From: an uncultured delta proteobacterium | GTDB taxonomy: Bacteria > Myxococcota_A > Polyangia > Polyangiales > B10-G4 | DNA length: 64,000 nt | Assembly (NCBI GenBank): GCA_963727445.1 | Contig: CAVSGI010000012.1 | Span: forward strand, 1-64,000 | Direction: 5' to 3' | Shown here: positions 7,004-55,132 of the stretch, one piece after another | Layout of the letters: each line of letters starts with the position of its first letter | Numbering within the stretch: the first letter of the stretch is position 1 | Translations under genes and position numbers: made by a program | Notes under the pieces: model-generated | Told to the model about the DNA's origin: nothing | What the model saw: only the letters and a program-made list of their open reading frames with translations | The model's database searches: none

Positions 7004-8551
7004 TCAGTGGTAGTAGCCAGGACCACGCACGTTCGCGTGGTCCAGCGGCGCACGACTCTCGCCGCCGTCTTCGTCGTTCGCGCTCAGCGCCACGCCGAGC
7101 TTCAGGATCCGCGCGACCGTTCGGTACGACCGCCCGCCGTGCGTCAGCGCCCGCTCGCAAGCGCGCTCGATCTCCGCGGCGTCGTGCTTGTCCCCGAGCG
7201 ACCTCAGCCCCGACGCCGACCGAAAGGTCACCTCTCGATTGAAGTTCGAGTCGAAGATCGCGCGCATCATCGCCTCGGTGTGCGGCCCGATGCGCGCACC
7301 CCACGCGAGTAAGTGCGCCGGGTCCTTGTCCGCCCACCAGCGATGCTTCGCCGGCAAGTGTTCGCGATCCGTCGTGTGCCCACCGACCTCGTCGCTGCGC
7401 ACGTGACCGGCGACGCGCTTCATGCCGATGAAGGCCTCCACCGTTGCCGCCGTCACACGGATCTCGAGACGCTCGTGCGCGAGCGCCCAGGGCACCGAGT
7501 AGAAGTGCCCCTCGACCTTCACGTGGTAGTCCGCGCCTGCGCGCGCCTCCATCCACTCTGACGGCTCGAAGCGCTCCGCAGGCAGCGCGCCAAGCGCGGC
7601 GCGCTCGACCCGCTCGAAGAGCGCGCGGCGGCTCAGACCCCCGTATTTCTTCATCGGACGCGCGTTCAGCTCCTCGCGCAGCTCCGCGATTCGCGCGTTC
7701 AGCGCTTCGAGCGAGAAGAAGCGCTCGTTGCGAAGGCGCGCGAGGATCCACCGCTGCGCGACCTGCACCCCGACCTCCACCTTCGCCTTGTCCTTCGGCT
7801 TGCCCGGCCGCGCCGGCACGACGGCCATCCCGTAGTGACGACCAAGTTCGGCGAAGGTTCGCTGGATGCCGGGCTCGTACGCGCACGCCTTCGTCACCGC
7901 GCTCTTCAGTTGGTCCGGCACCGTCATCTCCGGCACGCCGCCGAAGTACTCGAGCGCGTTCGCGTTCGCGCCGACCCAGTCCGCCACGCGCTGCGTCGCC
8001 GTCGCCTCCACGTACGTCAGATTCGAGGCGCCGAGCACCGCGACGAAGAGCTCCACCTCGATGCGCTCGCCTGTCGCCGGGTCGATGATGTACGGCTTGT
8101 TCCCCGAGTAGTCCGTGAAGCACTTCTCGCCCGCCCGGTGGTTCTGGCGCATCACCGGCGCGCCGCGCTTCTTCCACTTCCGGTACACGTCGCAAAACGC
8201 CGTGTACCGGTAGCCGTCCGGGTGCTCCTGCAGGTACTCCAGGTGCAGCAGCTCCAGCGTCACGCCCTTGCGCTTCAGCTCGACGTGTAGCATCACCGGA
8301 TCTGGCTTCGGCCGCGCGTGCTTTCCCACTGACTTCGGCTCGCCGTACAGCCGCCGGTCGAGCTCCTCGTCCGCGAGCGCCTCCACCAAGGGCCACGTCA
8401 GCCCCAGGTGTCGCGCTCGTGCCTCCGTCTGCGACACCGCGCCCGTGCTCACGCCCAGGCTCCGCGCCGTTTCTCGCACCCTCAGACCGCGCTCCCAGCG
8501 CAGCCGCAGAATCTCCCGGATCTTTCTCACGGCCAGTCGCTCCCTCGCCAT
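7004..8551 (-). CDS. istA: IS21 transposase
   Basis: 515 aa; N-terminal HTH, FTDYSG / VPDQLKS / KDKAKVE DDE motifs. Confidence 0.95.
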   Translation of the reverse strand: MARERLAVRKIREILRLRWERGLRVRETARSLGVSTGAVSQTEARARHLGLTWPLVEALADEELDRRLYGEPKSVGKHARPKPDPVMLHVELKRKGVTLELLHLEYLQEHPDGYRYTAFCDVYRKWKKRGAPVMRQNHRAGEKCFTDYSGNKPYIIDPATGERIEVELFVAVLGASNLTYVEATATQRVADWVGANANALEYFGGVPEMTVPDQLKSAVTKACAYEPGIQRTFAELGRHYGMAVVPARPGKPKDKAKVEVGVQVAQRWILARLRNERFFSLEALNARIAELREELNARPMKKYGGLSRRALFERVERAALGALPAERFEPSEWMEARAGADYHVKVEGHFYSVPWALAHERLEIRVTAATVEAFIGMKRVAGHVRSDEVGGHTTDREHLPAKHRWWADKDPAHLLAWGARIGPHTEAMMRAIFDSNFNREVTFRSASGLRSLGDKHDAAEIERACERALTHGGRSYRTVARILKLGVALSANDEDGGESRAPLDHANVRGPGYYH

Positions 8552-8627: not shown

Positions 8628-8800
8628 GTGTTCACGATCCCGCGATATGGGCGTTCACGAACGCGATATGAGCGTTCACGAACGCGATCTCGCTGTTCAC
8701 GATGGCGATCTCGGCGTTCATGAACGCGATCTCAGCGTTCACGAACCGCCGATCTCGCTGTTCACGATGACGCGATTTGGGTGTTCACGATCGCGCGAGA
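8628..8800. repeat. Tandem ~21-bp subterminal repeats (GTTCACGA core) at the IS21 left end
   Basis: About 8 copies of GTTCA(C/T)GA…GCGAT; multiple transposase-binding repeats are typical of IS21 ends. Confidence 0.85.
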
Positions 8801-8879
8801 TCCGCAGATAGTCCGCACAAACGGCCTCCGCTCTCTCGGAGTGGGCGGCGAGTCACAGATCAAACCTTGAACTAAGCAC

Positions 8880-8966: not shown

Positions 8967-8994
8967 GAGGTCACGAAGCAGCTTGGTTCATGAT

Positions 8995-9053
8995 ACTACC
9001 TCGAAACTCGGGCATCCGGTCAGGGGGTTGGCTTCCGTAGAGCCGGAAACCGG
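8995..9053 (-). repeat. 123-bp repeat family, diverged left half (copy 1)
   Basis: Minus strand CCGGTTTCCGGCTCTACGGAAGCCAACCCCCTGACCGGATGCCCGAGTTTCG. Confidence 0.85.
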
Positions 9054-14772: not shown

Positions 14773-14920
14773 CTCAACAACATGGCTGACAAGACGCCAG
14801 CTAAGATCACGTTGCGGGACTGGGTCGACCCGGTAGAGGGGATAAACGGTCGCGACATCCTTACCTTCGAGAAAAGGGAGGGATCTTGGGGGGTGTTCTT
14901 CTACCAGATCGACGAGGGCT

Positions 14921-15033
14921 CCGGTTTCCAGCCTCCACGGAAGCCAACCCCTTCACCGGACGCCCGAGTTTCCGAGAAGGAGCGATTACGTCGACTGCCA
15001 CCGCTGGCCCCACGGCAGGAGGCCGTTCATCCT
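14921..15033 (+). repeat. 123-bp repeat family, variant B (copy 2); tail cut by IS4
   Basis: Conserved left half, different central hairpin, ends GGAGGCCGTTCATCCT directly before the IS4 end. Confidence 0.9.
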
Positions 15034-16392
15034 CAATGCCGATCAGATAGCCGGCAAGTGATCGGAATAATTGGGCTGGTGGAGGTCGCTATCTGCTGTG
15101 CAGGAAACGGATCAGACTGCGGTTCATCTCGAGGAGGTGACCGTGCTGCAAGGAATCGTCGAGAGGTGCGCCGAGCTGGGGGCGCCGACAGGCCTGGACA
15201 CTTTGCGGCGCGGGTTGCCGGCAACGTGGATCGAAGAGGCGCTTGTAGCCACGGGTACGGCAACGGTACGACGGCGGCGTCTTCCGGCTGAGCAGGTCGT
15301 GTGGCTGGTGCTGGGGATGGCGCTGTTCAAGGACCGCTCGATCACGGAGCTGGTGAACAAGCTGGACCTAGCGCTCGCTGGGCGGAAGGTCACGGTGGCG
15401 CCGAGTGCAGTCACTCAGGCGCGCGCTCGTGTGGGAAGCGAGCCACTGCGCTGGCTATTCGACAAGTGCGGCACGCGTTGGGCGGACGAAAGCGCGAACA
15501 GTGATCGCTGGCATGGCCTGGCCTTGTACGGGGTCGACGGGACGTGTCTACGAGTTCCAGATTCGCAGGCCAATCGCGCGCACTTCGGTCTGCCGCCAGG
15601 CCCACGCGCGGTACTTGGCGGGGGATATCCCGTGGTGCGCGCGGTCGCGCTGACAGCACTCCGTTCACACATGATTCGGAGCGTGCGATTCGGCCCCTTC
15701 ACCGCGGGTGAGCACACCTATGCGCGTGAGCTTTGGGGCGACATCCCCGACGATTCCCTGACCATTCTCGATCGCGGATTCCAGGCGTCCAACGTCTTGT
15801 TCCCGCTGCACGCCGCAGGCCGCAACCGCCACTGGCTGGTGCGAGCGCGCTCTGACACCAACGGCAAGGTCATCAAGCGCTTCGGTCCCAACGACACGTT
15901 GGTGCAGTTCACGATCACCGCACCGACACGGCGCAAGGATCCTTCGTTGCCGATGCATTGGCAGGTGAGATGTGTTCGCTACAAGCATCGCGGAGGCAAA
16001 CCACAGATGCTGCTCACGTCGCTTCTGAACCCCGTCGAGCATCCGGCAAGAGAGCTCGTCGCGCTCTATCACGAGCGTTGGGAAATCGAGATGAGCTTCG
16101 ACGAGCTCAAGGCCGACATGCTCGAACGTCACGTCCCCATCCGCAGCCAGACGCCAGAAGGCGTACGACAAGAGCTGTGGGGCATTCTTCTCGCCTACAA
16201 TCTCGTGCGGCGTGAGATGGAGCGGGTCGCTGAGGATGCTGGCGTCAGCCCGCTGCGCATCAGCTTCATCGCCTCCTATCGCTACATCCGAGACGAGTTT
16301 CTCTGGTGCGCAATCGCAGCTCCGGGCGCCATCCCGAAGCACCTTCGACGGCTGCGCGAGCACCTTGCTCTGTATGTGCTTCCGCCCCGTCG
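15034..16392 (+). mobile_element. IS4-family element, right end lost
   Basis: Begins CAATGCCGATCAG, like the IS4 terminal repeat TAATGCCGATCAG; the transposase breaks after LPPRR. Confidence 0.8.
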
Positions 16393-22319: not shown

Positions 22320-22429
22320 CGTGCGGACACCTCCGCGGCAGGTAGCCCGTCGGCCGCGTGGCTTGAGGCCGCGTGGCTTGAGAGGAAGTTCTTGTCGAGA
22401 ACGTGCGCCCTAGAACTCGCCGAGCAGCT

Positions 22430-22552
22430 CCGGTTTCCAGCCTCCACGGAAGCCAACCCCTTCACCGGACGCCCGAGTTTCCGAGAAGGTATGATCTGTC
22501 GACTCCCTGCCCGGCCGGAGGGGAGCGGAGGCCGTTCATGGTTACTACCCGC
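22430..22552 (+). repeat. 123-bp repeat family, variant A (copy 3)
   Basis: Full CCGG…CTACCCGC copy. Confidence 0.95.
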
Positions 22553-23067
22553 ACGCGGACGTCGAACGCCGTCGCCCCCTCTTCGTGGATCACGGCCTGG
22601 TTGCCGATCGTGAGGACGCGCGCGCCCGCGGCCCCCGTCGTCTCCACGCCTTGCGCCTCCGACGACGCGAGCGTCACGATCCGGTCGAAGAGGCCATCGA
22701 GCGCTCCCTCGAACGAGGCGGAGAAGCGCGCTGGCCCGTGGCCGATGACCAGCGTCTCGGTCTTCGAAAGAACCTCGCGGCTGATGTCGCCCTGGCTCCC
22801 GTACGTGGGAAACGGAAACTGAGCCATCGCCGCGTCCTCGAAGGGCGTTCCCCGGAGCACGGAAGGATGCACGACGAAGACCACCTCCACGTCCGAGGGG
22901 AGCCTCGAGACTGCGGGATCGTCGAGGCTCAGCCCCCGCGCAACCACCGGTCGCTCTTCGACGTGCGCCGTCTCGACCGGCGCCTCCACCGGCTGCGGCC
23001 TCGTCTCGGGAGCGCCGCCACAGCCGATGAGGAGGGACACCGCGACGACGACTGGACGGGTTCTCAT
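22553..23067 (-). pseudogene. Lipoprotein whose 3' end runs into repeat copy 3
   Basis: MRTRPVVVAVSLLIGC…AFDVRV, then repeat sequence. Confidence 0.7.
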
Positions 23068-23105
23068 CCGCGCGAGTCTAACTGAGGTTCGATCGCCGCG
23101 ACGCG

Positions 23106-23849
23106 TCACTCCAAGTCGATCACGACCCGGCGCAGAGCGTAGGCCTTCGCGGTGGGGACGAGGAACCGGCGGGCGGCTTTGCGGAACCAGCGGTGGAGGG
23201 CGTTGCTGTTGTACATCGTGCCCGGGCCGCGACCGCCCGACTGCGAGGTCGCGAGCTCGCGGCTGGTGACGATCAGGTCGTCGCCGGCCCACTTCGCGGT
23301 GGTGCGCCGGCACGCGCGCGACGCAGCGTGCGCGAGCATGGCGCGGGTCTCGTCGTCGAGCTCGACGGCCGGCGAGATGATCAGCCTGACCCGGCCCGTG
23401 AACTGGCGGTCGGCGGCGAGCGCGTGCAGGTAGGCGTCGCGGTCGAACGGGAACGGCAGGGCTGCGAGCCAGCGCCGCTGGCGCGTGGCGAGCAGCTTGG
23501 GGAGCAGGCGGAGCAGGACGTAGATGCTGCCGACGCAGACGGCCCCCGCCGTCGCGAACATGGAGAGCACGGTCAGGACGTTGATCGTGTCGACGATCCG
23601 AATCCAGACCAGGATGGTGCCGATCATCGAGGCGAAGCACAGGGCGATGCCGCCGACGCTGACCACCATGCCGGGCATCGTCAGGGCCAGGTCGATCGCG
23701 GCCTCGTCGTCATCGGAGTCGGACGACCGCCGCTTCGCCTTGGGCGGCTTCCAACCGCGGGCCAGCTTCTTCAGGTCGGCGCGGGCGGCGGCCCGCTCGG
23801 CGTTGTCGTCGGCGTCGTCGCTGTCACTGCCGGCGTGCCCCGCGCTCAT
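23106..23849 (-). CDS. Membrane protein with two TM helices
   Basis: 247 aa, strong GC3 bias, two hydrophobic segments. Confidence 0.8.
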   Translation of the reverse strand: MSAGHAGSDSDDADDNAERAAARADLKKLARGWKPPKAKRRSSDSDDDEAAIDLALTMPGMVVSVGGIALCFASMIGTILVWIRIVDTINVLTVLSMFATAGAVCVGSIYVLLRLLPKLLATRQRRWLAALPFPFDRDAYLHALAADRQFTGRVRLIISPAVELDDETRAMLAHAASRACRRTTAKWAGDDLIVTSRELATSQSGGRGPGTMYNSNALHRWFRKAARRFLVPTAKAYALRRVVIDLE

Positions 23850-24124
23850 CGCGCCATCGTATCAGCTCCCTCAGCACGTCGGGGAGGCACCCGCACTTCG
23901 CGGAGCGAATGACGAAATGACGAAGAGCGTCCCCAACACCCCCCAACATCGTCTCTTCAGGTCGGCGCGGGCGGCGGCCCGCTCGGCGTTGTCGTCGGCG
24001 TCGTCGCTGTCACTGCCGGCGTGCCCCGCGCTCATCGCGCCATCGTATCAGCTCCCTCAGCACGTCGGGGAGGCACCCGCACTTCGCGGAGCGAATGACG
24101 AAATGACGAAGAGCGTCCCCAACA
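23768..24124. repeat. 171-bp tandem duplication (period 186 bp)
   Basis: 23768..23938 is identical to 23954..24124. Confidence 0.95.
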
Positions 24125-24520: not shown

Positions 24521-24532
24521 GAAAGTTCGGCT

Positions 24533-24646
24533 CCGGTTTCCAGCCTCTACGGAAGCCAACCCCTTCACCGGACGCCCGAGTTTCGCAGTAGGAGCGATTA
24601 CGTCGACCGCCGCCCCTGACTCCACTGCGGGAGGCCGTTCATCCTC
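24533..24646 (+). repeat. 123-bp repeat family, variant B (copy 4); right end approximate
   Basis: Conserved left half, then AGGAGCGATTACGTCGAC…GAGGCCGTTCATCCTC as in copy 2. Confidence 0.9.
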
Positions 24647-25121
24647 GTTCACCCTTCCTATCAGCTAGCCAACCCGGACTGCAATGGAACGCACGGCGTC
24701 TGGGTGAACACGGGACAGGCGCCCTCGGGTTGTTCGACCAACCTGGACGGCACGGCCATCCGCGACACCGAGCTGCAACCGGTGCATCTTCCATCCCGAA
24801 GTGTGGTGGACTCCGGCTCACCCACCCTCCACCAACGCACCCTCGAAACCCGAACACTCGCCGCAGTCCTCGATCTCCGCGACCGCGACCGGCGATCACG
24901 AGTCCGATATCCCCATAGCCCCCGCCGACGCTGGACTGCCGCGAACCGGCTCGACTCAAACACGTTTCGACTGACCGCGGGCGAAACAGCCGCTCGTCGA
25001 GCAGCAGTGCCTTCACGCCCGCGCTCCGCCGAAACCTCCCCAATCTGTCGACTGGCGTCCTGGCCCGAAAGGAGCGAAGGCCGCTCATCGTGACTATCCC
25101 CCGATGGGCCTCACCTGCGCG

Positions 25122-25736: not shown

Positions 25737-25881
25737 GGAAGACCCCGGGCACTATATCAGCCGCTGAGCGGCCTGGGCCGACATGAAGCGCCTGACACTT
25801 CGAGGTCGGCTACAATCGAGGCCTCGATGCGCGACGGCGCCGAAAGCACGGTCACCACGTCCTCTCTTACCCACGTCGGCT

Positions 25882-26004
25882 CCGGTTTCCAGCCTCCACG
25901 GAAGCCAACCCCTTCACCGGACGCCCGAGTTTCGCAGTAGGTATGATGTATCGACTCCCTGCCCGGCCGGAGGGGAGCGGAGGCCGTTCATGGTTACTAC
26001 CCGC
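25882..26004 (+). repeat. 123-bp repeat family, variant A (copy 5)
   Basis: Full copy. Confidence 0.95.
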
Positions 26005-26095
26005 AACGAGATGATCACGCTTTCACGACACGTGAACGGTTACGCACGGCTCGTGTCGACGGCCTGCTCAAGATCTTCACCTTGTACTGCGTGCC

Positions 26096-26392
26096 TCACT
26101 CACGAGGCACCGCCCCATACGGCTCGTAACAACAATTCGGGTGAACACAATACGGATGGTTGTCGAAGGCCGGGCCGCAGATGATGTCCGTATTGGGACA
26201 GCACACGAAGCCGTCCTCGCACGCGACTATCCCGCCACACAGGCATGGTAAGTCTGCGCCTGCATCCTGACATACGCCGGCATCGACGCTGCCGTCCAAA
26301 GGAGGGTCGTGGTGCTCGCCGCACGCGGCGAGGAGCGACACCACGGCGATCACAGCCGCACCAAGTACGGTCAAGGTGTGGGACTGATCCAT
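26096..26392 (-). CDS. Small Cys-rich lipoprotein
   Basis: MDQSHTLTVLGAAVIAVVSLLAAC plus DAG repeats and a Cys cluster. Confidence 0.7.
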   Translation of the reverse strand: MDQSHTLTVLGAAVIAVVSLLAACGEHHDPPLDGSVDAGVCQDAGADLPCLCGGIVACEDGFVCCPNTDIICGPAFDNHPYCVHPNCCYEPYGAVPRE

Positions 26393-26709
26393 GCTGCATG
26401 CAGTTGAGGTGTGGTTGGGCCTTCCATCCAAGCAAAAAGGTACTGGGGTCCCCCTCCGGGCCCATTGGTCCCAAATGGCGCGCCCTCGATATAGTCTCCG
26501 AAGTAGCCGAACCTTCCTTCGAATGGCGGATTGCCCAACCTCGGCGCTGTCCCAAGCCAGATCGTTGTATTGCGAGGACACGGTGTACACGTTCCATAGC
26601 TTGCCCTCGGGATCGTCCCGCGTATCGTACCATGTGAGCACCAGGTGATCGTCGGGAAGGCCACCAACGCCGGCGCGATTGCGCGCGAGTGCAGGTAGAA
26701 AGGCGTCGC
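26371..26709 (-). pseudogene. C-terminal part of a sialidase/BNR-like beta-propeller protein
   Basis: GDAFLPALA…LVLTWYDTRDDP, then after a frameshift GYFGDY…LFAW. Confidence 0.6.
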
Positions 26710-26832
26710 CCGGTTTCCAGCCTCCACGGAAGCCAACCCCTTCGCCGGACGCCCGAGTTTCGCAGTAGGTATGATGTATCGACTCCCTGCCCGGCCGGAG
26801 GGGAGCGGAGGCCGTTCATGGTTACTACCCGC
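26710..26832 (+). repeat. 123-bp repeat family, variant A (copy 6)
   Basis: Full copy. Confidence 0.95.
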
Positions 26833-27197
26833 AGCGGGTCGAGGGCTTTTCGCCTGCGTGGGACTGGACCCGCGCCTACTCGGAGATCAACGACTTCGAG
26901 GAGACGCTCGTCGAAAACGGCGTCGTCGTGGTGAAGTTCTGGCTGCACATCGACTCCGAGGAGCAGCTGCGCCGTTTCGAAGAACGAAAGCGCGTGGCCT
27001 TCAAGCGCCACAAGATCACCGACGAGGACTGGCGCAACCGCGAGAAGTGGCAGCCCTACGAGCTCGCGGTGCACGACATGGTCGAGCGGACGAGCACGGA
27101 GATCGCGCCGTGGACGATCATCGCCGCGAACGACAAGCGCCACGCGCGCGTGGCGGTCGTCGAAGCGCTCGACGACCAGATGGAAGCGGCCTTTTAG
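26833..27197 (+). pseudogene. ppk2: 3' fragment of a polyphosphate kinase 2 family gene
   Basis: RVEGF…AYSEINDFE…VKFWLHIDSEEQLRRF…KITDEDWRNREKW…APWTIIAANDKRHAR; starts at the repeat edge. Confidence 0.9.
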
Positions 27198-27198
27198 A

Positions 27199-27921
27199 TC
27201 ACTGCGCGAAGATCTCGACGTTCCCCTCGCTGTAATGAAGGCCATCGTCTCGAAACTGGATGATCGCTCGCATCGATCCGCTGGGGTGGCCCGAGGGGTC
27301 GGCGTGCTCGATGTTCAGCATCAGCTCGCTGGCAGGATGTAGCCCCGCTTCGAAGGCGGCCTTCGCGTCGGCGCACGTCGCGCTGCTGTTCATTCCCGTC
27401 GCGTACGGAAGGTCGCAGTCCGACTCCACGATCGCGCGGCGCACGCGCTCCATGGCCGCCACCACGGCAGGGGCATGCGCAGCGGCCGCCTCGCTGATCG
27501 GCGGATAGTAGGCCCCGGGACCAAACGACGTCGTAACCCCTTCGTAGCGCAGCGTCCCGTCCGGAGACACCATCGCCTGAACGCTCACGTGCTTCGTATC
27601 CGATCCCTGCTCGTTCGGACTGAACTGCAACAGCAGCGAGCGCTTCGAAACCGGGATCAACATGATCGGCGTCGAGTTGCTGTTCTCCGACAGCCCCGGA
27701 AGCGGGTGCTCCCCGGCGAATGCAGCGCGAAGCGCGGCGTGCTGCTCTACGATGAAGTCTCGTAGCGCCACGTCTTCGGGAGCCAGCGCAGGCTCGGGAG
27801 GCGCGGGGGGGGCGACGGGCGCGGGAGGCGGCGGGGCGACGGGCGGCGTGGCTACCTGCTCGTCGTCGCCACATCCGGCGGTCGTGATCAGCAGTCCGAG
27901 GACCAAGAGGGGACGGTACAT
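27199..27921 (-). CDS. Lipoprotein with Pro-rich linker
   Basis: MYRPLLVLGLLITTAGC, PPVAPPPP. Confidence 0.75.
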   Translation of the reverse strand: MYRPLLVLGLLITTAGCGDDEQVATPPVAPPPPAPVAPPAPPEPALAPEDVALRDFIVEQHAALRAAFAGEHPLPGLSENSNSTPIMLIPVSKRSLLLQFSPNEQGSDTKHVSVQAMVSPDGTLRYEGVTTSFGPGAYYPPISEAAAAHAPAVVAAMERVRRAIVESDCDLPYATGMNSSATCADAKAAFEAGLHPASELMLNIEHADPSGHPSGSMRAIIQFRDDGLHYSEGNVEIFAQ

Positions 27922-27983
27922 GGAGGCCGACATAGCGGATCTCGATGCCATCCGACAATGGGACCCCAGATGGGGAGGGTGCT

Positions 27984-28446
27984 CTACTGTCCGAGCGCGC
28001 ACTGTGCTGCTTCGCGCACGCGCGGTTCGGGATCGTGGGCGGCCGCGCGCGAGAGCGCGGCACGCGACGCACCACCGCCGAGCGTTCCGAGCGCTCGCGC
28101 CGCCGCCTGGCGCACGAAGGCGTAGTCGTCTCCGACGAGTGCTTCCTCGAGGGCGCCCCGCCCTTCGTCGCCCCCGACCCGTCCGAGTGTTTCGGCAGCG
28201 AGGGTGCGCAGCGCCCAATCGCCGTGGGTGCGGAGGATCGCGGCAACCCGGGGAACCGCCGCGGTGTTGCCAGCGGTCAACGTGGAGAGCGCAGCGCGGA
28301 GCACCAATGACTCGTCGTCGTCGAGCGCCGTCGCGACGACCTGATACGCGTCGGGATCGTCGAAGCGGGCGAGGAGCTGCACGGCCAGAGCGCGGACCTG
28401 CGCCCCGGGATGACGGGCGACGGTCAGGAGCTCGGGGAGGAGGGCT
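27984..28446 (-). pseudogene. 3' fragment of a HEAT-repeat protein
   Basis: VRALAVQLL, LRTLAAETLG, VRQAAARALG and VREAA repeats; the frame is open up to the repeat edge with no start. Confidence 0.85.
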
Positions 28447-28569
28447 CCGGTTTCCAGCCTCCACGGAAGCCAACCCCTTCACCGGACGCCCGAGTTTCGC
28501 AGTAGGTATGATGTATCGACTCCCTGCCCGGCCGGAGGGGAGCGGAGGCCGTTCATGGTTGCTACCCGC
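28447..28569 (+). repeat. 123-bp repeat family, variant A (copy 7)
   Basis: Full copy. Confidence 0.95.
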
Positions 28570-29000
28570 CTGGGGTATTGCCAGTCGAGCTTGTGGGGTC
28601 GAACGCCATGGCCTGCATGTCCTGATCCCCGGCCGAGCATCCCTTGTCATCGTTCACTTGGACGCTCCTCACGAAGGTTCGGCCGCCATCAAACGACAGG
28701 GCAGCGACGATCATGTCGGGGTGCTCGGTGACAGGCCGATTGATCGAGTGGGCGAGGTTCGTTGCCACCACAATGCCGGGCTGGGAAGGATCTGCATCGA
28801 TGTCCGGATCTCCGCGCCACGTCTGTTGAACGAGGCTACCTGCTACACTTCGCACCCGGATGTCGCGAATCCCACCATTGCACACCGCTCCCGATTGCGA
28901 TGTGGTGGTTGCCAACGAAAACGGCTCTGAAGTCAGCCGGGCTGTGAAGCTCAGAGTCGGTGCGGTAGGTTGCGGATGCCGAGGCTCGCCGAAGGGTAGG
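28570..29000 (-). pseudogene. Upstream part of the BNR-like protein
   Basis: GDPDIDADP…Asp-box SFDGGRTF…VND…GDQD. Confidence 0.65.
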
Positions 29001-29002
29001 CG

Positions 29003-29311
29003 ATGGGCTACCAGTACAAGCTCGACGTGACACCAGGAGTCCTGGACCTGGGCGCCATCTGCGATTCGGTGGTGGCGTCGACAGCCTGGATCCGTATCCC
29101 AACGTCGTTCTCCGATGGCGTCGGCATCGGGGTCGGCGACTCGACAATCGATCCGAATTCGTCGTGGCCGCACATTGCAGACCTGCGCTTGGAAGCCCCG
29201 ACCTCTATCCACGTCCTCTGCCACACTCAGACAGGGGGCCTCTTCATGCACGCTCTTGTCCAAGCGCTTCGGGACAAAGGGCACGTCGTCGTCATCGACG
29301 ACGACGTGTAG
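29003..29311 (+). CDS. Small hypothetical protein
   Basis: 102-aa ORF with plausible RBS and composition. Confidence 0.5.
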   Translation: MGYQYKLDVTPGVLDLGAICDSVVASTAWIRIPTSFSDGVGIGVGDSTIDPNSSWPHIADLRLEAPTSIHVLCHTQTGGLFMHALVQALRDKGHVVVIDDDV

Positions 29312-29981
29312 TGGCGTGTTGTACCGCCTCGTGCTGCGCCAGCCCGAGGTGGTGGCCACGCTGGGCTACGTCAAGTGCGGGCGCCGCAGGCCGGAGGTGC
29401 TGACGCGCACCGAGGTGGCCGCGCTGCTGGCCGCCTTCACGTCGGTCGTGCACGAGACGCTCGCGATGCTCTGCTACGGAGCGGGCCTTCGCGTCAGCGA
29501 GGCGGTCAAGCTGCGCATCGCCGACGTGCACAGCCATCGCGGGGTGCTCTTCATCGCCTTCGGCAAAGGCGGCAAGCAGCGGGAGGTCCCTCTGAGTGAG
29601 AGGCTGCTCGGCCAGCTTCGTCACTACTACCGGCAGCGCCGGCCGCATGGCCCGTACTTGTTTCCCGGTCGCTCGGGACGGCCCCATCTGACCCGCAGCG
29701 CCCACTGGATCGCCGTGCGCAAGGCGCGGGCGCGCGCCGGGTTGTCCAAGCGCGTCAGCCCGCACTGTCTGCGTCACAGCTACGCGACGCATCTGCTCGA
29801 GGATGGCGTCGACATCCGAACGGTGCAGGCACTGCTCGGTCACGCCACGATCGAGACGACGGCCTGGTACCTCAGCGTCAGCCGCGAGCGGATGCGGCGC
29901 GTGCCCAGTCCGCCGCGGACACAATACGGGGTGCGTGGAGGGCTCCGGGTCCGACTAAACAACGGGCTCGGGGCACCATAG
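29312..29981 (+). pseudogene. Tyrosine recombinase (XerC/D-like) catalytic domain, N-terminal domain missing
   Basis: YGAGLRVSE, GKGGKQR, HCLRHSYATHLLE, LLGH…TTAWY: full R-K-H-R-H-Y set; no IntI-type insertion. Confidence 0.85.
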
Positions 29982-30185: not shown

Positions 30186-30647
30186 TCAATCAGCCGAACG
30201 AAGCGCGATCCGCTCCCAGCGAGCGCGGATTCCCTCGCAGTCGCTGTAGTCAGCCTCTCGGTACAACCAGATCAGTGTGTCCACAAAGGCGCGCGGGTTC
30301 TTCACGACTCGAAGTCCCTCGATGCGGCACACGACGCGACCTCGATCTGCTTTCGCGGAGCTTCTGAGGTAGACGTTGACGTGCTGCGACTCACGGACCT
30401 CCACGACTACATAGGGCGAAGATGGCTTGCTGAAGCTCAGGCTGAGGAAGTCCCCATCGGCTTCGTCCTCCTCCTTCGTCGCCGACAAGTCGCCGATGAA
30501 TCGGATCTTCTTTCGCTTAGTCGAGAGGAGCGACCATACGTCCTCCACGAACGCGTCCGAGAATCTGATATCCAAGTCCGTCTCAAGGCATTCACTGGTT
30601 AGCGTCTCATGCCACCCGTGTGGGGATTGTGAGCGGGTAGTAACCAT
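30186..30647 (-). CDS. Hypothetical protein; in-frame ATG lies in the tail of repeat copy 8
   Basis: MVTTR-SQSPHGW…DIRFSDAFVEDVW…; an internal TTG start is also possible. Confidence 0.55.
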   Translation of the reverse strand: MVTTRSQSPHGWHETLTSECLETDLDIRFSDAFVEDVWSLLSTKRKKIRFIGDLSATKEEDEADGDFLSLSFSKPSSPYVVVEVRESQHVNVYLRSSAKADRGRVVCRIEGLRVVKNPRAFVDTLIWLYREADYSDCEGIRARWERIALRSAD

Positions 30648-30765
30648 GAACGGCCTCCGCTCCCCTCCGGCCGGGCAGGGAGTCGATACATCATACCTAA
30701 TCATACCTACTGCGAAACTCGGGCGTCCGGTGAAGGGGTTGGCGTCCGTAGAGGCTGGAAACCGG
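30633..30765 (-). repeat. 123-bp repeat family, variant A (copy 8) with internal 10-bp duplication
   Basis: ATCATACCTA occurs twice in tandem. Confidence 0.95.
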
Positions 30766-30781
30766 AGAGCGAACTGCCCTT

Positions 30782-31075
30782 CTAAGGGTCGATTGACATG
30801 CCGCAGATACCCACTCTGTCCGAGCAAGCGAGGGAGCAACAGTCTTCATTGACGGTGCATGGCTCGTCCATGCCCCGACACGCCGTGTCGGCAGTGGTGC
30901 TGTCGGCAAAGACGTCGTCCGCGCCTCCGTCGAGATTGGCATCCTCCGAGCCGCTGTCGGTGTCGGCTGTCGCATCGATGCCCCCATCGACGGGCGTCCG
31001 ACTGCTAGAACAGCTCCACAACAACAGGGCGAGCACGACAATCCATGTGTATGCGCTACAGCGGGTGGTAACCAT
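30782..31075 (-). CDS. Small Cys-rich lipoprotein; start codon supplied by repeat copy 9
   Basis: MVTTR-CSAYTWIVVLALLLWSC…CTVNEDCCSLAC. Confidence 0.65.
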   Translation of the reverse strand: MVTTRCSAYTWIVVLALLLWSCSSSRTPVDGGIDATADTDSGSEDANLDGGADDVFADSTTADTACRGMDEPCTVNEDCCSLACSDRVGICGMSIDP

Positions 31076-31127
31076 GAACGGCCTCCGCTCCCCTCCGGCC
31101 GGGCAGGGAGTCGATACATCATACCTA
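31061..31127 (-). repeat. 123-bp repeat family, right half (copy 9), abutting an IS4 end
   Basis: TAGGTATGAT…ACCCGC on the minus strand. Confidence 0.95.
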
Positions 31128-32143
31128 CATTCGTGTTCGGATAAGCGGCTGCGACTGTCGAGAAGGTTAAGCAATTCCAATTGGTTGAGCCCTGCGCGCG
31201 CTCCGTGATCGAAAAGAGCCACCGCTTCTGATCTCCTACGGGTGTCTAAGTCCAAAGGAGGGAAGCGATGGCTCGCCGCAAGCCTAGCCACATTCATCGA
31301 GCGCTGACCAGCGTGTTGCCGCGTCGTCGGATCCGGGAGCTGTCTCGCCGGCTGGGAGTCGTTCGACGCCGGCGCAAGGTTGATATCGTGTCGCTGGTGT
31401 ACGGGTTGCACAACGCGCTCGAGCACTCGTATCCATCGGTGTTCACCCACTACATGAAGGCGTCCGCGAAGCTCGGCGTGGTGATGAATGTCGTCGGCCG
31501 CGGCGCGAAGACGATTGCCATCACGCACGGAAGCCGCCACGACAAGCACCTGCTTCAGGCTGGCGCGTGGATGCGAGGGCGCCTCTTGCTCTTCGACCTC
31601 GGCTTCTACCGCGCCTCGCTCTTCGAGCAGATCGACGCCCACGGCGGTTACTTCCTCACCCGGATGAAGAAGCAAGGCAACCCGGTGCTCGTGCGCAGTC
31701 ATCTGCGAGCGCATCGCCATCTCGTCGGAATGAAGCTCCGCGATGTCCAGCAGATCGTCGACACCGACGTCATCGATGTCGACGCCAAGATGGTGTAGCA
31801 GCGCCGTCATCGACACAGGCCGCTCGTCACGAACCACTACGCCTGTTTCCGCTGCGTCGCCCTGTACAACCACGAGCTCGACCAGTGGCATCGATACGTG
31901 ACGAATCTGCCGGCGGACCTCCTCGAGGCCCATTACTTCGCGGCCGTCTACGCCGCACGCTGGGAGGTGGAGTCGCCGACGATCTCCTCGCGCTCGTCCT
32001 GTCGCGCCGAGACCGCTCGGCGCGCGCACGACGCATCGAACACTTCCTGCGCGCCGAGGCCCAAGACCCCAACGCCGCGAGAATCCCTTTGCCCTACAGG
32101 ACTCAGACGGGCACCCATCCGTGGCCTTAGGCGATCACGAATG
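31128..32143 (+). mobile_element. Internally deleted IS4-family element
   Basis: TIRs CATTCGTGTTCGGATAAG and (reverse) CATTCGTGATCGCCTAAG; transposase remnants LFDLGFY and YAARWEVE with an internal stop at 31796..31798. Confidence 0.85.
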
Positions 32144-32198
32144 TAGGTATGATCTGTCGACTCGCGCTTCCGGCGGGAGTGGCGGGAGGCCGTTTGTG
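32144..32198 (+). repeat. 123-bp repeat family, right half, variant C; tail continues at 33610..33621
   Basis: TAGGTATGATCTGTCGAC…GGAGGCCGTTTGTG, then after IS110 CCATCTATCCAC. Confidence 0.85.
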
Positions 32199-32214
32199 AT
32201 GGCTTCTGTGAAGC

Positions 32215-32480
32215 GGCCACCCCGGTCAACAGGTTTGTCTGATTTTCGTTCTACGTCGTTGCACGTCTCCTTCGCCTCGGCTCGGGTTCGTCGTTTCGCT
32301 CATACGTGACGGGTTGTTCAGCCTTCTGTTCGCGCTCGACTGGGGCGGCATCGAGGCCGCGGCGCAGGGTGGGATTCGGTGGTGGTCGGCGCCATCTATC
32401 CATCGGCGTTCGACAGCAGCCAGCCAGCACATCGCGCTCGACCACCATAATCGGTTCCCTTCACGAAGAGCGGGTCATCG
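32215..32480 (-). ncRNA. Candidate bridge/seek RNA of the IS110 element; boundaries unknown
   Basis: Contains GCCATCTATCCA (32391..32402), equal to the reconstructed target, and CTTCTGT (32323..32329), equal to the element end. Confidence 0.6.
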
Positions 32481-32491
32481 TCGGTTGCGGG

Positions 32492-33523
32492 TCAGGCTGC
32501 AGCAGCCTCCTCACGGCTCGCTGTCGCCTCGAAGCGCGTCCCGTCTCGCCACATCGCGTACAAGATCCCCGCGAGCTTGCGCGCCAGCGCCACCGCCGCG
32601 ATCCGCTTGCCGCGGCGTGCGGCGATGCGCTCCGTCCAGTCGCGTAGCGCCTTCGTCTCCGGTCGTTTGTGACGCAAGATCCCCCAGGCCGCTTCGACGA
32701 GCAGCGACCTGAGACGGCGATTGCCGGTCTTCGTGATGTGGCCCCGCATCCGTTTTTCGCCAGAGCTCAGCTCGCGGGGCACCAGGCCGAGGTAGGCGCG
32801 CACTTGTGAGGCGTTGTGGAAGCGACCGATCTGGTCGACCACGGCGACGAAGGTCACCGCCGTCACCGGCCCGATGCTCGGCACGGTGCACAGGCGTTCG
32901 ACGGTCTCGTCGCCCTTGGCGAGCTCGGCGAGGCGCTTGTCGGCGTCGCGGATCTGCATGGTGAGCTGCTCGAGCATCGTGAGCAGCGGCGCGACCTCGA
33001 GCGCCAGGTGGGCGGGCAGTGACAGCTCCTCGATGCGCGCCGCGAAGGTCGCCGCTCCGCCGCTTCGTGGCGACAAGCCCTCGCGCCGCACAAGCGCTCG
33101 GGTGAGCGAGATGTACTTCGTTCGCGTGCGCACCAGCGCATCACGCACCGCGACCTGCGCTCGCCGATGACGGGCCGCGTCCGAGGCGCGGTGCGCTGGG
33201 CGGTACGCGCCGAGCCGGCAGGCGTCGCAGAGCGCCCGCGCATCGCGCCGGTCCGTCTTCACCTTGCGGCTTCGCGTGGCATACATCGGCGCGAAGTTCG
33301 GGTCCGCCACGATCACCTCATGGCCCAGCTCCTCGAGCCACCGCGCCACCCACTCGCTGTCCGTCGACGCCTCCATCAGGATCTTCGCCCGGGCGCGGTC
33401 CGCGAACACCTTCGCCAGCGCATCGCGCGTCGTCGCCACGCGCCGCTCCCGCAGCTCTCCCTCGCTCGTCTGGATGCAGACCTGACTTGTCTTCTTGTGA
33501 ACATCGATGCCAATGTGTTCCAC
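32492..33523 (-). CDS. IS110-family DEDD recombinase/transposase
   Basis: IGIDVHK, MEAS, KTDRRDA; C-terminal YLGLVP…SSGE…ALARKLA. Confidence 0.95.
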   Translation of the reverse strand: MEHIGIDVHKKTSQVCIQTSEGELRERRVATTRDALAKVFADRARAKILMEASTDSEWVARWLEELGHEVIVADPNFAPMYATRSRKVKTDRRDARALCDACRLGAYRPAHRASDAARHRRAQVAVRDALVRTRTKYISLTRALVRREGLSPRSGGAATFAARIEELSLPAHLALEVAPLLTMLEQLTMQIRDADKRLAELAKGDETVERLCTVPSIGPVTAVTFVAVVDQIGRFHNASQVRAYLGLVPRELSSGEKRMRGHITKTGNRRLRSLLVEAAWGILRHKRPETKALRDWTERIAARRGKRIAAVALARKLAGILYAMWRDGTRFEATASREEAAAA

Positions 33524-33629
33524 GGCTGGCCTCCACTCTGCGGCTCTTGACCGCGTTTACGGTTGTGGGGCTACGGCTACCACGTCAGTGGCGGCCAGCC
33601 GCTTACATCCCATCTATCCACCCTTTGGG

Positions 33630-47454: not shown

Positions 47455-47505
47455 GTGGATAGATGGGATGTAAGCGGCTGGCCGCCACTGACGTGGTAGC
47501 CGTAG
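47455..47505 (+). mobile_element. Orphan IS110 left end plus repeat tail
   Basis: 51 bp equal to the reverse complement of 33571..33621. Confidence 0.9.
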
Positions 47506-47628
47506 TTGATAGATGGCGTGAACGGCCTTCCGCCATCCTCCCGCGAGCCAGGGGCTACATCATCGCTCCTACCGCGAAACTCGGACGTCCGGTGAAGGGG
47601 GTTGGCTTCCGTGGAGGCTGGAAACCTG
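47505..47628 (-). repeat. 123-bp repeat family, variant C (copy 11)
   Basis: Conserved left half; tail GGCCGTTCACGCCATCTATCAAC. Confidence 0.9.
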
Positions 47629-53438: not shown

Positions 53439-53987
53439 GGGGACGGTCCGAACTTCCGTGGGGGGGAACGGGGACGGTCCGAACTTCCGTAACGCGCGCG
53501 TCGGGCGGGGACGGGGGAACGGGGACGGTCCGAACTTCCGTAACGCGCGCGTCGGGCGGGCGCGTTTGACTCCATTCCACAGATTCACGAATCCCGAATG
53601 CCGGTTCGGATCAGCCGCAACCGATGCGCTGCCGGCTCGACGAGGGGCTGTGCTAGGGACGGGGGAACGGGGACGGTCCGAACTTCCGTAACGCGCGCGT
53701 CGGGCGGGCGCGTTTGACTCCATTCCACAGATTCACGAATCCCGAATGCCGGTTCGGATCAGCCGCAACCGATGCGCTGCCGGCTCGACGAGGGGCTGTG
53801 CTATGCGCGCCCGCATCTCGGCGGATCGGTGACGTGGATGGCGTGCGAAGGAGAGCTCCACACGAGGACTCGGTCGTGGCGGGGCCACTCTCAGAGGATC
53901 TGGCTCGGAGCGCCGCGTGACGGAAGTTCGAACCGTCCCCGATCGCCTGGCTCGGGGCGCCGCGTGACGGAAGTTCGGACCGTCCCC
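53439..53987. repeat. REP-like cluster GGGGACGGTCCGAACTTCCG (4 direct, 2 inverted) including a 148-bp tandem duplication
   Basis: Direct copies at 53439, 53470, 53521 and 53669; inverted copies ending 53940 and 53987. Confidence 0.9.
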
Positions 53988-54691: not shown

Positions 54692-54817
54692 GTTGATAGC
54701 CGCCATGAACGGCCTTCCGCCACTCCCGCCATCGGGCGCGCGCGACAAAACACTCCTACTTCTCGGAAACTCGGACGTCCGGTGAAGGGGTTGGCTTTCG
54801 TGGAGCCTGGAAACCGG
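54692..54817 (-). repeat. 123-bp repeat family, variant C (copy 12)
   Basis: Conserved left half; tail GGCCGTTCATGGCGGCTATCAAC. Confidence 0.9.
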
Positions 54818-55132
54818 AGTTTCAGGAACTGACGGTTCCTGCGCCCTTTCGCGCCCGGCGCCTACCCGGCGACGGACAGGACGCGTAGGGTGGAGGGTGA
54901 CCTCGGAGGTTCTGTCCGCCATTCGGACACAACCCGAGCGCGAGTGGCGAACGCCAGGAGTTCTGTCCGTCTTGGGGACAGGACTCGTGACGTCGAGGTC
55001 GACGTCGGCACTTCCGTTCGTCGACTCAGGTCACGTCGACGAATGCGTCTGCGCGGCCGGGAGATCGAATCGTCGCCCCGAGTGGTCAGTCGAGTGGACC
55101 CGCGCGCGTCCACGAAACAACGGAGGCATTTC

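Follow-up and report, generated by a model that had tools for sequence, protein, structure and literature searches.

Fixed-length ISCR-type origin repeats and the chromosomal slices between them in an uncultured member of the Polyangiales

A repeat-cargo-repeat unit and its setting

The window analysed here is a stretch of 64,000 nucleotides (C12:1-64000) from genome G000, an assembly of 9.47 Mb with 69% GC that is 85.6% complete in 27 contigs. Two direct repeats in this window, 26710-26832 and 28446-28569, are identical at 121/124 positions and enclose a cargo of protein-coding genes, and the unit is bordered on both sides by pieces of propeller-like coding sequence:

26371..26709, - strand: propeller-like protein, C-terminal piece (left half), with a frameshift near 26551 and without a significant homologue
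26710..26832, + strand: mini element, from a fixed left end (the usual first T is missing here) to the oriIS end ...CTACCCGC of an IS91/ISCR-family element
26833..27197, + strand: 3' fragment of a two-domain PPK2 / polyphosphate:AMP phosphotransferase gene (last 120 codons), 93.6% to the resident copy on contig C20; its start is exactly the oriIS end
27199..27921, - strand: intact lipoprotein gene of 240 aa, without a family and missing from the resident ppk2-HEAT locus
27984..28445, - strand: 3' fragment of a HEAT-repeat gene (last 153 codons), 80.8% to the resident C20 copy and truncated after GC, where the left end of the following repeat lies
28446..28569, + strand: mini element (T-CCGG... 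to the oriIS end), the probable origin from which the cargo was copied
28570..28828, - strand: propeller/BNR-like protein, internal piece (right half), 56-68% to P0001-P0003 over ~80 aa

The unit had been described in an earlier note on this DNA as a ppk2 3' part, an intact lipoprotein gene and a HEAT 3' part between two repeats, with the outer genes cut within their reading frames, and this description is confirmed by domain matches (PF03976 in the ppk2 fragment, E 3e-41) and by the resident homologues of 490 aa (ppk2) and ~1400 aa (HEAT). The outer genes end exactly at the repeat ends, with cut points at aa 370 of ppk2 and ~aa 1253 of HEAT. The further claim that capture ignores gene boundaries, unlike that of integron cassettes, also stands, as both outer genes are severed mid-gene.

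The repeat recurs throughout G000, with 44 hits by blastn and 51 with a profile made from 12 copies, and the other copies listed in the window are:

14920..15035, + strand: mini element that belongs to the subfamily of the C10 parent and is interrupted by an IS4 at 15036
22429..22552, + strand: mini element
24532..24665, + strand: mini element of another subfamily; a 10-bp duplication lies close to its origin end
25881..26004, + strand: mini element of the same subfamily as the two copies that bound the unit (122/124 and 123/124)
30633..30766, - strand: inverted mini element carrying a 10-bp duplication at the target site of the IS4 family
31061..31128, - strand: origin half of a mini element, abutting an IS4-family element (31129-32142)
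32143..33621, + strand: origin half of a mini element, with IS110 (32205-33615) inserted 6 nt inside the oriIS end
47505..47627, - strand: mini element
54692..54818, - strand: mini element

Two IS4-family elements lie at fixed positions of the repeat (15036-16392, 31129-32142, C11:19287-20646, and C20:65351-65630), and 10-bp duplications at these positions remain in the copies at 24533, 30765, and C11:32787. The segment 30633-31128, which adjoins one of these elements, is inverted relative to the array, probably through the action of the IS. A rve/Mu-type transposase gene (7004-8551) with 21-bp tandem repeats upstream (8640-8810) lies beside a truncated repeat copy (8992-9053).

Identity of the repeat

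The earlier note had left the repeat without a name, and the ISCR-type rolling-circle origin identity proposed here supplies it with a mechanism. At four sites (on contigs C10, C24, C9, and C5), the repeat lies ~90-120 bp behind the stop codon of a Y2 transposase gene (Y2_Tnp and Zn_Tnp_IS91), and these parent transposases, of which that on C9 is frameshifted and that on C5 decayed, match PF04986 and PF14319 above cut-off. The best NCBIfam match of the parent transposase is ISCR clade Ia (E 5e-99), with NF052416 and NF033538 both below their cut-offs, and its match to ISVsa3 is ~41%. The last 22 nt of the repeat agree with the ISCR1 oriIS at 12-14/22 positions and end on the same base (PMC13023784); at homologous loci, the ISCR1 22-mer scores 19 (L082), 15 (L141), and 7 (L113, where it is apparently one base out of register). 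Full elements have a different, conserved left end, which is common to 6/6 aligned elements, does not resemble the origin end in sequence and would be the terminator (ter). With an oriIS end behind the Y2 gene and a separate left end in the full elements, the repeat is an origin-only mini element, and its 124 bp are the oriIS end of an IS91/ISCR-family element. No Y2 transposase gene is present in contig C12, so the unit itself is non-autonomous. In the C9 and C10 parents, an upstream gene extends to unequal lengths beyond the conserved left end, which is a sign of read-through.

The ends TCCGGTTT... and ...CTACCCGC are not complementary, so the repeat lacks the terminal inverted repeats of a MITE. 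No empty site was found, the only overlap at the ends being 2-3 bp of GC(T), and the tetranucleotide target that adjoins oriIS in IS91, IS801, and IS1294 is absent, the bases after 28 origin ends being variable. A structured RNA (no Rfam match in the window) and an outward sigma-70 promoter like that of ISCR1 (0 consensus sites in the repeat) were also considered and rejected. The repeat profile gave no match in the transposase loci L022-L167.

An IS110-family element with subterminal inverted repeats, at 32205-33615 in the window and also on C9, C11, C21, and C24, lies 6 nt within the oriIS end of the ISCR in 9/9 copies (eight placed by the right flank and one, at a contig end, by the left). 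From these positions, it appears to target the ISCR origin, which its insertion would inactivate. In the genomes of a second family, f9 (described below), interruptions of the repeat also fall at one fixed position in its middle.

Integron cassette arrays consist of a recombinase gene and, behind it, cargos with same-strand repeats between them, and a comparable site-specific array, in which the repeat would be the recombination site of a nearby tyrosine recombinase or of the IS110 recombinase, would match the same-strand repeats between cargos, the phage-integrase ORF at 29115-29981 and the location of every IS110 copy within the repeat. This reading is considered very improbable. As attC sites, four of five repeats fold no better than shuffled sequences (z +1.2 to +1.9; the C9 parent gives z -2.65), the cargos are cut mid-gene, and the repeat forms the 3' end of Y2 transposase elements both here and in another family; IS110 interrupts the repeat and does not end in it, by which the repeat is ruled out as an IS110 end. 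The arrays thus differ from integrons in having no palindromic attC fold, in cargos that are cut mid-gene and mostly antisense and in an enzyme that is a Y2 HUH transposase. The tyrosine-recombinase ORF itself (PF00589, E 4e-40) lies in the segment after the unit, seems to lack its N-terminus and has 68% DNA matches on C11 and C22.

Junction rules

The left end is identical in 42/51 copies and is preceded by GC in 24/37 non-parent copies (22 with GC then T and two, including 26710, with GC without T), an enrichment with p 1e-13 against the genome GC-dinucleotide frequency of 0.123 in which two copies share one flank. Comparison with resident homologues assigns the T and the terminal GC/AC to the element. 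The CGCC that the earlier note had seen at both junctions is indeed common to them, and it consists mostly of the repeat's own ends, since the origin ends in ...CCCGC and GC precedes most left ends. After the origin end, A/T is enriched at +1 in G000 (20/28) and not in the other family (9/24). The donor base on the origin side, as judged in five cases from resident homologues rather than from donors, is C in 2/5 vs 53/58 at left ends (Fisher p 0.012); the C is missing in 3/5, among them both fully mapped cargos, as expected of points at which copying stopped. The GC rule is not seen at the left flanks of full elements, and of the copies for which a junction could be compared with a resident homologue, 0/8 were solo minis with contiguous flanks. 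Two repeat markers occur in all four combinations, from which it follows that repeat copies recombine.

Origin of the cargo

The resident chromosome carries ppk2 and HEAT 57 bp apart on C20, without a lipoprotein gene between them, which bears out the suggestion that the unit holds a chromosomal slice. The cargo aligns to this locus from its first base (93.6%) up to its last base but one (80.8%), and the coding differences comprise 18 synonymous and 5 amino-acid-changing codons in ppk2 and 43 synonymous and 29 amino-acid-changing codons in HEAT. Because these differences are mostly synonymous, the slice must have evolved under selection in another genome, and the alignments identify 26833-28445 as a foreign chromosomal slice from a sister lineage. 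The earlier note had proposed ppk2-lipoprotein-HEAT synteny as a way to tell self from foreign origin: synonymous divergence from the C20 locus rules out a self origin and points to a sister lineage, while no donor locus or empty site is present in 40 relative genomes, where the best ppk2 match outside G000 is 80%. The cargo lipoprotein was not found in the single congener genome (86% complete), and Atlas hits to it are at most 0.80 and serve only as leads.

A second cargo, C11:17491-19270, is built in the same way. From an origin end it enters the 3' portion of a core gene that is 82% to C4, has a middle of ~1.2 kb that is missing from the resident locus and ends in the 3' portion of a convergent gene, presumably DNA-methylase-like (dam-like) by its motifs, which is 89.6% to its resident counterpart (31 synonymous and 10 other codons) and whose cut lies at GC then T. 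In both fully mapped cargos, the cuts are therefore mid-gene at both ends, and both contain a whole gene without a counterpart at the resident locus; with only two mapped cargos, a random slice and a slice kept for its new gene fit alike. Among 21 inter-repeat segments, two map with both ends to one resident locus, and for most, the ends lack a close match in the resident genome. Core-like slices in the arrays are 80-98% to resident genes and never 100%.

The previous cargo (26005-26709) contains an intact ORF of 98 aa (26096-26392, - strand) for a small Cys-rich lipoprotein-like protein, with no Pfam hit and a lipoprotein signal judged by eye, and lipoprotein-like small ORFs, whole or cut, were recognized by eye in several cargos (26096-26392, 30782-31060, and 22553-23080). 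The arrays may be enriched in envelope genes. Perfect tandem duplications are present in or near cargos at 23768-24124 (171 bp, 186-bp spacing) and 53508-53803 (148 bp).

Arrays and their spread among relatives

A neighbour within 10 kb is present for 44/51 repeat copies, and adjacent copies resemble each other more than distant ones do, with at least 93% identity in 6/17 adjacent pairs vs 12/378 distant pairs (permutation 1 in 10000). On C9, C24, and C5, the copies lie downstream of the transposase, at the origin side and on the same strand; no array accompanies the C10 parent, and minis of the C10 and C9 subfamilies occur in the window, distant from their parents. The first uninterrupted copy equals the parent in 4/4 arrays (118/118, 119/119, 103/103 in three copies, and 82/82 in two copies), and distal copies diverge, the second copy on C9 matching at 80/118. 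In two other genomes (G099 and G009), interrupted and differing copies lie between the parent and the first complete copy.

The transposase family occurs in 136/251 genomes of the order, a tally that includes one unpublished genome (G126). In family f9, with transposases at 59-60% identity, G099 and G009 have the same layout with minis of 82-103 bp, and G094 has runs of same-strand minis (assemblies of 6, 20, and 10 contigs for G099, G009, and G094, respectively). These three genomes have a different left-end sequence, yet 16/21 of their non-parent left ends follow GC and four follow AC, in a sample that was chosen by sequence pattern and misses a few copies, one with GG. A variant of ISCR gene capture is shared by at least two families of the order. 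Its generality is limited by other genomes: in G042 and G044, fixed short minis were not seen and transposase-bearing partial copies predominate, and in G043 and G216, left ends vary, both of which count against it. In G041, 10/13 non-self hits start at most 6 bases from one site, without the GC rule. A narrow pattern scan of the 251 genomes recovered only 5 of G000's own copies.

A relaxase ORF (PF03432, PF22863) lies inside the G099 array (L225:5315-6658) and might make it mobilisable. A metagenome contig (L022:1-3426), 86% to G000 C11, has an ISCR of 85% identity between core genes; the contig ends inside the same repeat sequence, and no exact empty site could be aligned at this locus.

Since G000 is incomplete and several arrays lie at contig ends, the junctions might be thought to come from sister-strain reads joined through a short repeat in assembly. 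Such a chimera can be discounted almost entirely, as the junctions fall at exact element ends with a sequence rule and the same architecture is present in the independent, well-assembled genomes G099, G009, and G094.

The layout of the arrays also suggests a concerted event, in which the transposase would nick a resident origin, the 124 bp would be recopied and joined to a foreign single strand nicked at GC and the free end would close on the old origin, so that one event yields repeat-cargo-repeat in the manner of spacer acquisition but by HUH chemistry. It would explain at once the mid-gene cuts, the motif on one cargo side only, the identical neighbours, the asymmetry and the polarity, and it agrees with the proximal copies that equal the parent, the clustering of the copies, the resemblance of core-like slices to resident genes at less than 100% and the lack of a solo insertion with contiguous flanks. 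To our knowledge, repeat-duplicating capture of this kind has no precedent, and the reading is judged improbable: 11/17 adjacent pairs differ, the second C9 copy matches at 80/118, interrupted and differing copies lie ahead of the first complete one in G099 and G009, minis of the C10 and C9 subfamilies lie in the window far from their parents, the C10 parent is without an array, and the variable-length partial copies in relatives fit ordinary one-ended transposition. It is equally improbable that the lineage uses its ISCR elements for an acquisition array, in which the Y2 transposase would duplicate its own 80-125-bp origin while joining GC-cut foreign DNA and would place new cargo beside its gene between identical repeats. 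If this were true, the acquisition array would be a third repeat-array capture system beside integrons and CRISPR, with single-strand HUH chemistry and blind to gene boundaries, and the origin-targeting IS110 would freeze array units. The arrays differ from CRISPR, with its short repeats and constant-length spacers, in a 124-bp repeat and in inter-repeat segments that measure 0.7-7 kb in the 21 cases listed.

The propeller pieces at the flanks

Deletion of 26710..28569 joins the flanking pieces in frame on the same strand (...GNTP-G-DAFLPALA), as the earlier note had observed; its conclusion that the unit had inserted precisely into a single BNR-like gene is unsupported, since the halves are non-adjacent in 10/10 homologues of the right half, an outcome that the note itself had named as a refutation. 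This was established with a 10-member profile of the propeller family to which P0001-P0013 belong. This profile matches the right half only, at positions 103-182 of 466 (E 4e-33), and gave no significant match to the left-half frames (154 stop-to-stop pieces). In all 10 members, FDPTT is followed by a conserved W-x-x-W-R strand that is missing from the window, and the part of the family tail that resembles the left half, by eye only, lies ~175 aa beyond FDPTT. A word search found no homologue of the left half, pairwise comparison with P0001-P0003 was unconvincing (25-502 of 1000 shuffles, nine comparisons), and two HMMER hits were judged spurious, being repeat proteins that match 30-40 aa. Both pieces have low GC (60-62%) and GC3 (0.56-0.73, against 0.80-0.92 in the cargo genes), which speaks for one source gene. 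There is an even chance that the pieces come from different genes; one gene that has lost ~0.5 kb is somewhat less probable, and a true empty site is unlikely. The pieces would be parts of neighbouring cargos, or a gene minus ~0.5 kb, rather than the two sides of a clean empty site.

These results bear on a composite transposon, in which two minis inserted, independently of each other or through local hopping, at sites 1.6 kb from one another in a donor chromosome, and 26710-28569 then moved whole, from the right origin to the left end, into a GC target, which would include a precise insertion into the propeller gene. The known chemistry of IS91, which acts in trans and makes no target duplication, would suffice for this (PMC13181058), the join keeps both frame and strand and lies at GC, the two propeller pieces share their low GC and GC3, and local hopping would account for the identical neighbours. 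The composite is nevertheless doubtful: the propeller halves are not adjacent in their homologues, the insertion rule is expected at both junctions and is broken on the origin side in both fully mapped cargos, and outward snowballing predicts that the newest copies are distal, whereas it is the proximal copies that match the parent.

A proposed mechanism: read-through rolling-circle capture

The reading preferred here is read-through rolling-circle capture, after which the product would integrate into a resident repeat in the way suggested for ISCR1; its probability is put at about 0.5. The repeat is a non-autonomous derivative of the ISCR-type origin end with a fixed length of 124 bp, and the HUH/Y2 transposase would be supplied in trans from full elements elsewhere in the genome. 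Minis would form when rolling-circle copying from oriIS halts at an internal site ~90 bp behind the transposase stop codon, and the junction counts suggest that they insert after GC. A mini in the HEAT gene of sister-lineage DNA would then have been recopied, past its own left end and through 1.6 kb of chromosome, until copying halted inside ppk2, and would have yielded a circle of cargo and mini. By analogy with the ISCR1 model, this circle would have integrated into a repeat already resident, either through homologous recombination or through transposase action on its origin end, to give repeat-cargo-repeat, and repeated rounds would build the arrays on the origin side of the transposase.

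Read-through capture accounts for the mid-gene cuts and for the motif on one side of the cargo. Against it count the lack of a solo mini with contiguous flanks, which is its predicted intermediate, and the left flanks of full elements, which do not show the GC rule. The statement, as of 2018, that no ISCR had been shown to transpose also counts against it (PMC6218425). The identity of the first copy with the parent fits read-through only on condition that the cell in which the array was built contained mainly the subfamily of the parent.

Relation to known systems and significance

For IS91, the account in PMC13181058 describes terminator read-through and insertion of a bottom-strand circle. 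In complex class 1 integrons with ISCR1, the model of Toleman et al. has an aberrant rolling-circle product that integrates as a circle into a duplicated segment by recombination and can reiterate (PMC13023784, PMC7707992). These integrons resemble the present arrays in an oriIS behind the transposase with a matching 22-mer and in variable DNA on the origin side; in the accounts cited, their duplicated segment measures kilobases (3'-CS, ISCR1) and their cargo is resistance genes, whereas here housekeeping slices of sister lineages are separated by a repeat that consists of the origin alone, is fixed at 80-125 bp and follows a GC rule at its junction.

Miniature derivatives of IS801, of 229, 360, and 679 nt, are origin-end fragments from one-ended transposition at a few fixed internal sites, mobilise adjacent DNA and have been proposed as recombination regions (PMC3189936). 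They share with the minis described here their nature as origin-end fragments with fixed internal ends; they end at target-like tetranucleotides and are rare in genomes according to that source, whereas here there is one mini class in dozens of copies, in polar arrays and with no tetranucleotide rule. The ISCR28 "sandwich" (Yuan et al. 2024, via PMC12772301), in which a gene lies between two successive oriIS ends, is like the units described here in that respect, and it differs in its variable-length remnant and single gene, and the citing text mentions no array of several units built on a minimal repeat. Helitrons capture flanking gene pieces by terminator bypass and have non-autonomous families, and no local hopping is observed according to the passage cited (PMC4778049). 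They share with the present system a HUH transposase, a dinucleotide target that spans the nick and the capture of gene fragments, and they are unlike it in being eukaryotic and helicase-fused, with the origin at the other end and, in that account, no repeat-separated arrays.

A literature search (titles and the start of abstracts, with most subscription papers outside its scope) returned no paper describing arrays of fixed origin-only ISCR minis and none on IS110 targeting oriIS. The fixed minimal repeat, the polar arrays and the GC rule are new relative to known ISCR capture.

ISCR elements are blamed for the capture of resistance genes, and the model for this capture was built from a small number of large structures of clinical origin. 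The dozens of natural junctions described here, which come from two families within a single order, define a minimal substrate of ~100-125 bp, its polarity and a rule by which cuts fall at GC then T, and with these defined, capture becomes testable with one protein and a short DNA. For the bacteria of this order that carry them, the arrays would be a route to stockpile accessory genes from sister lineages.
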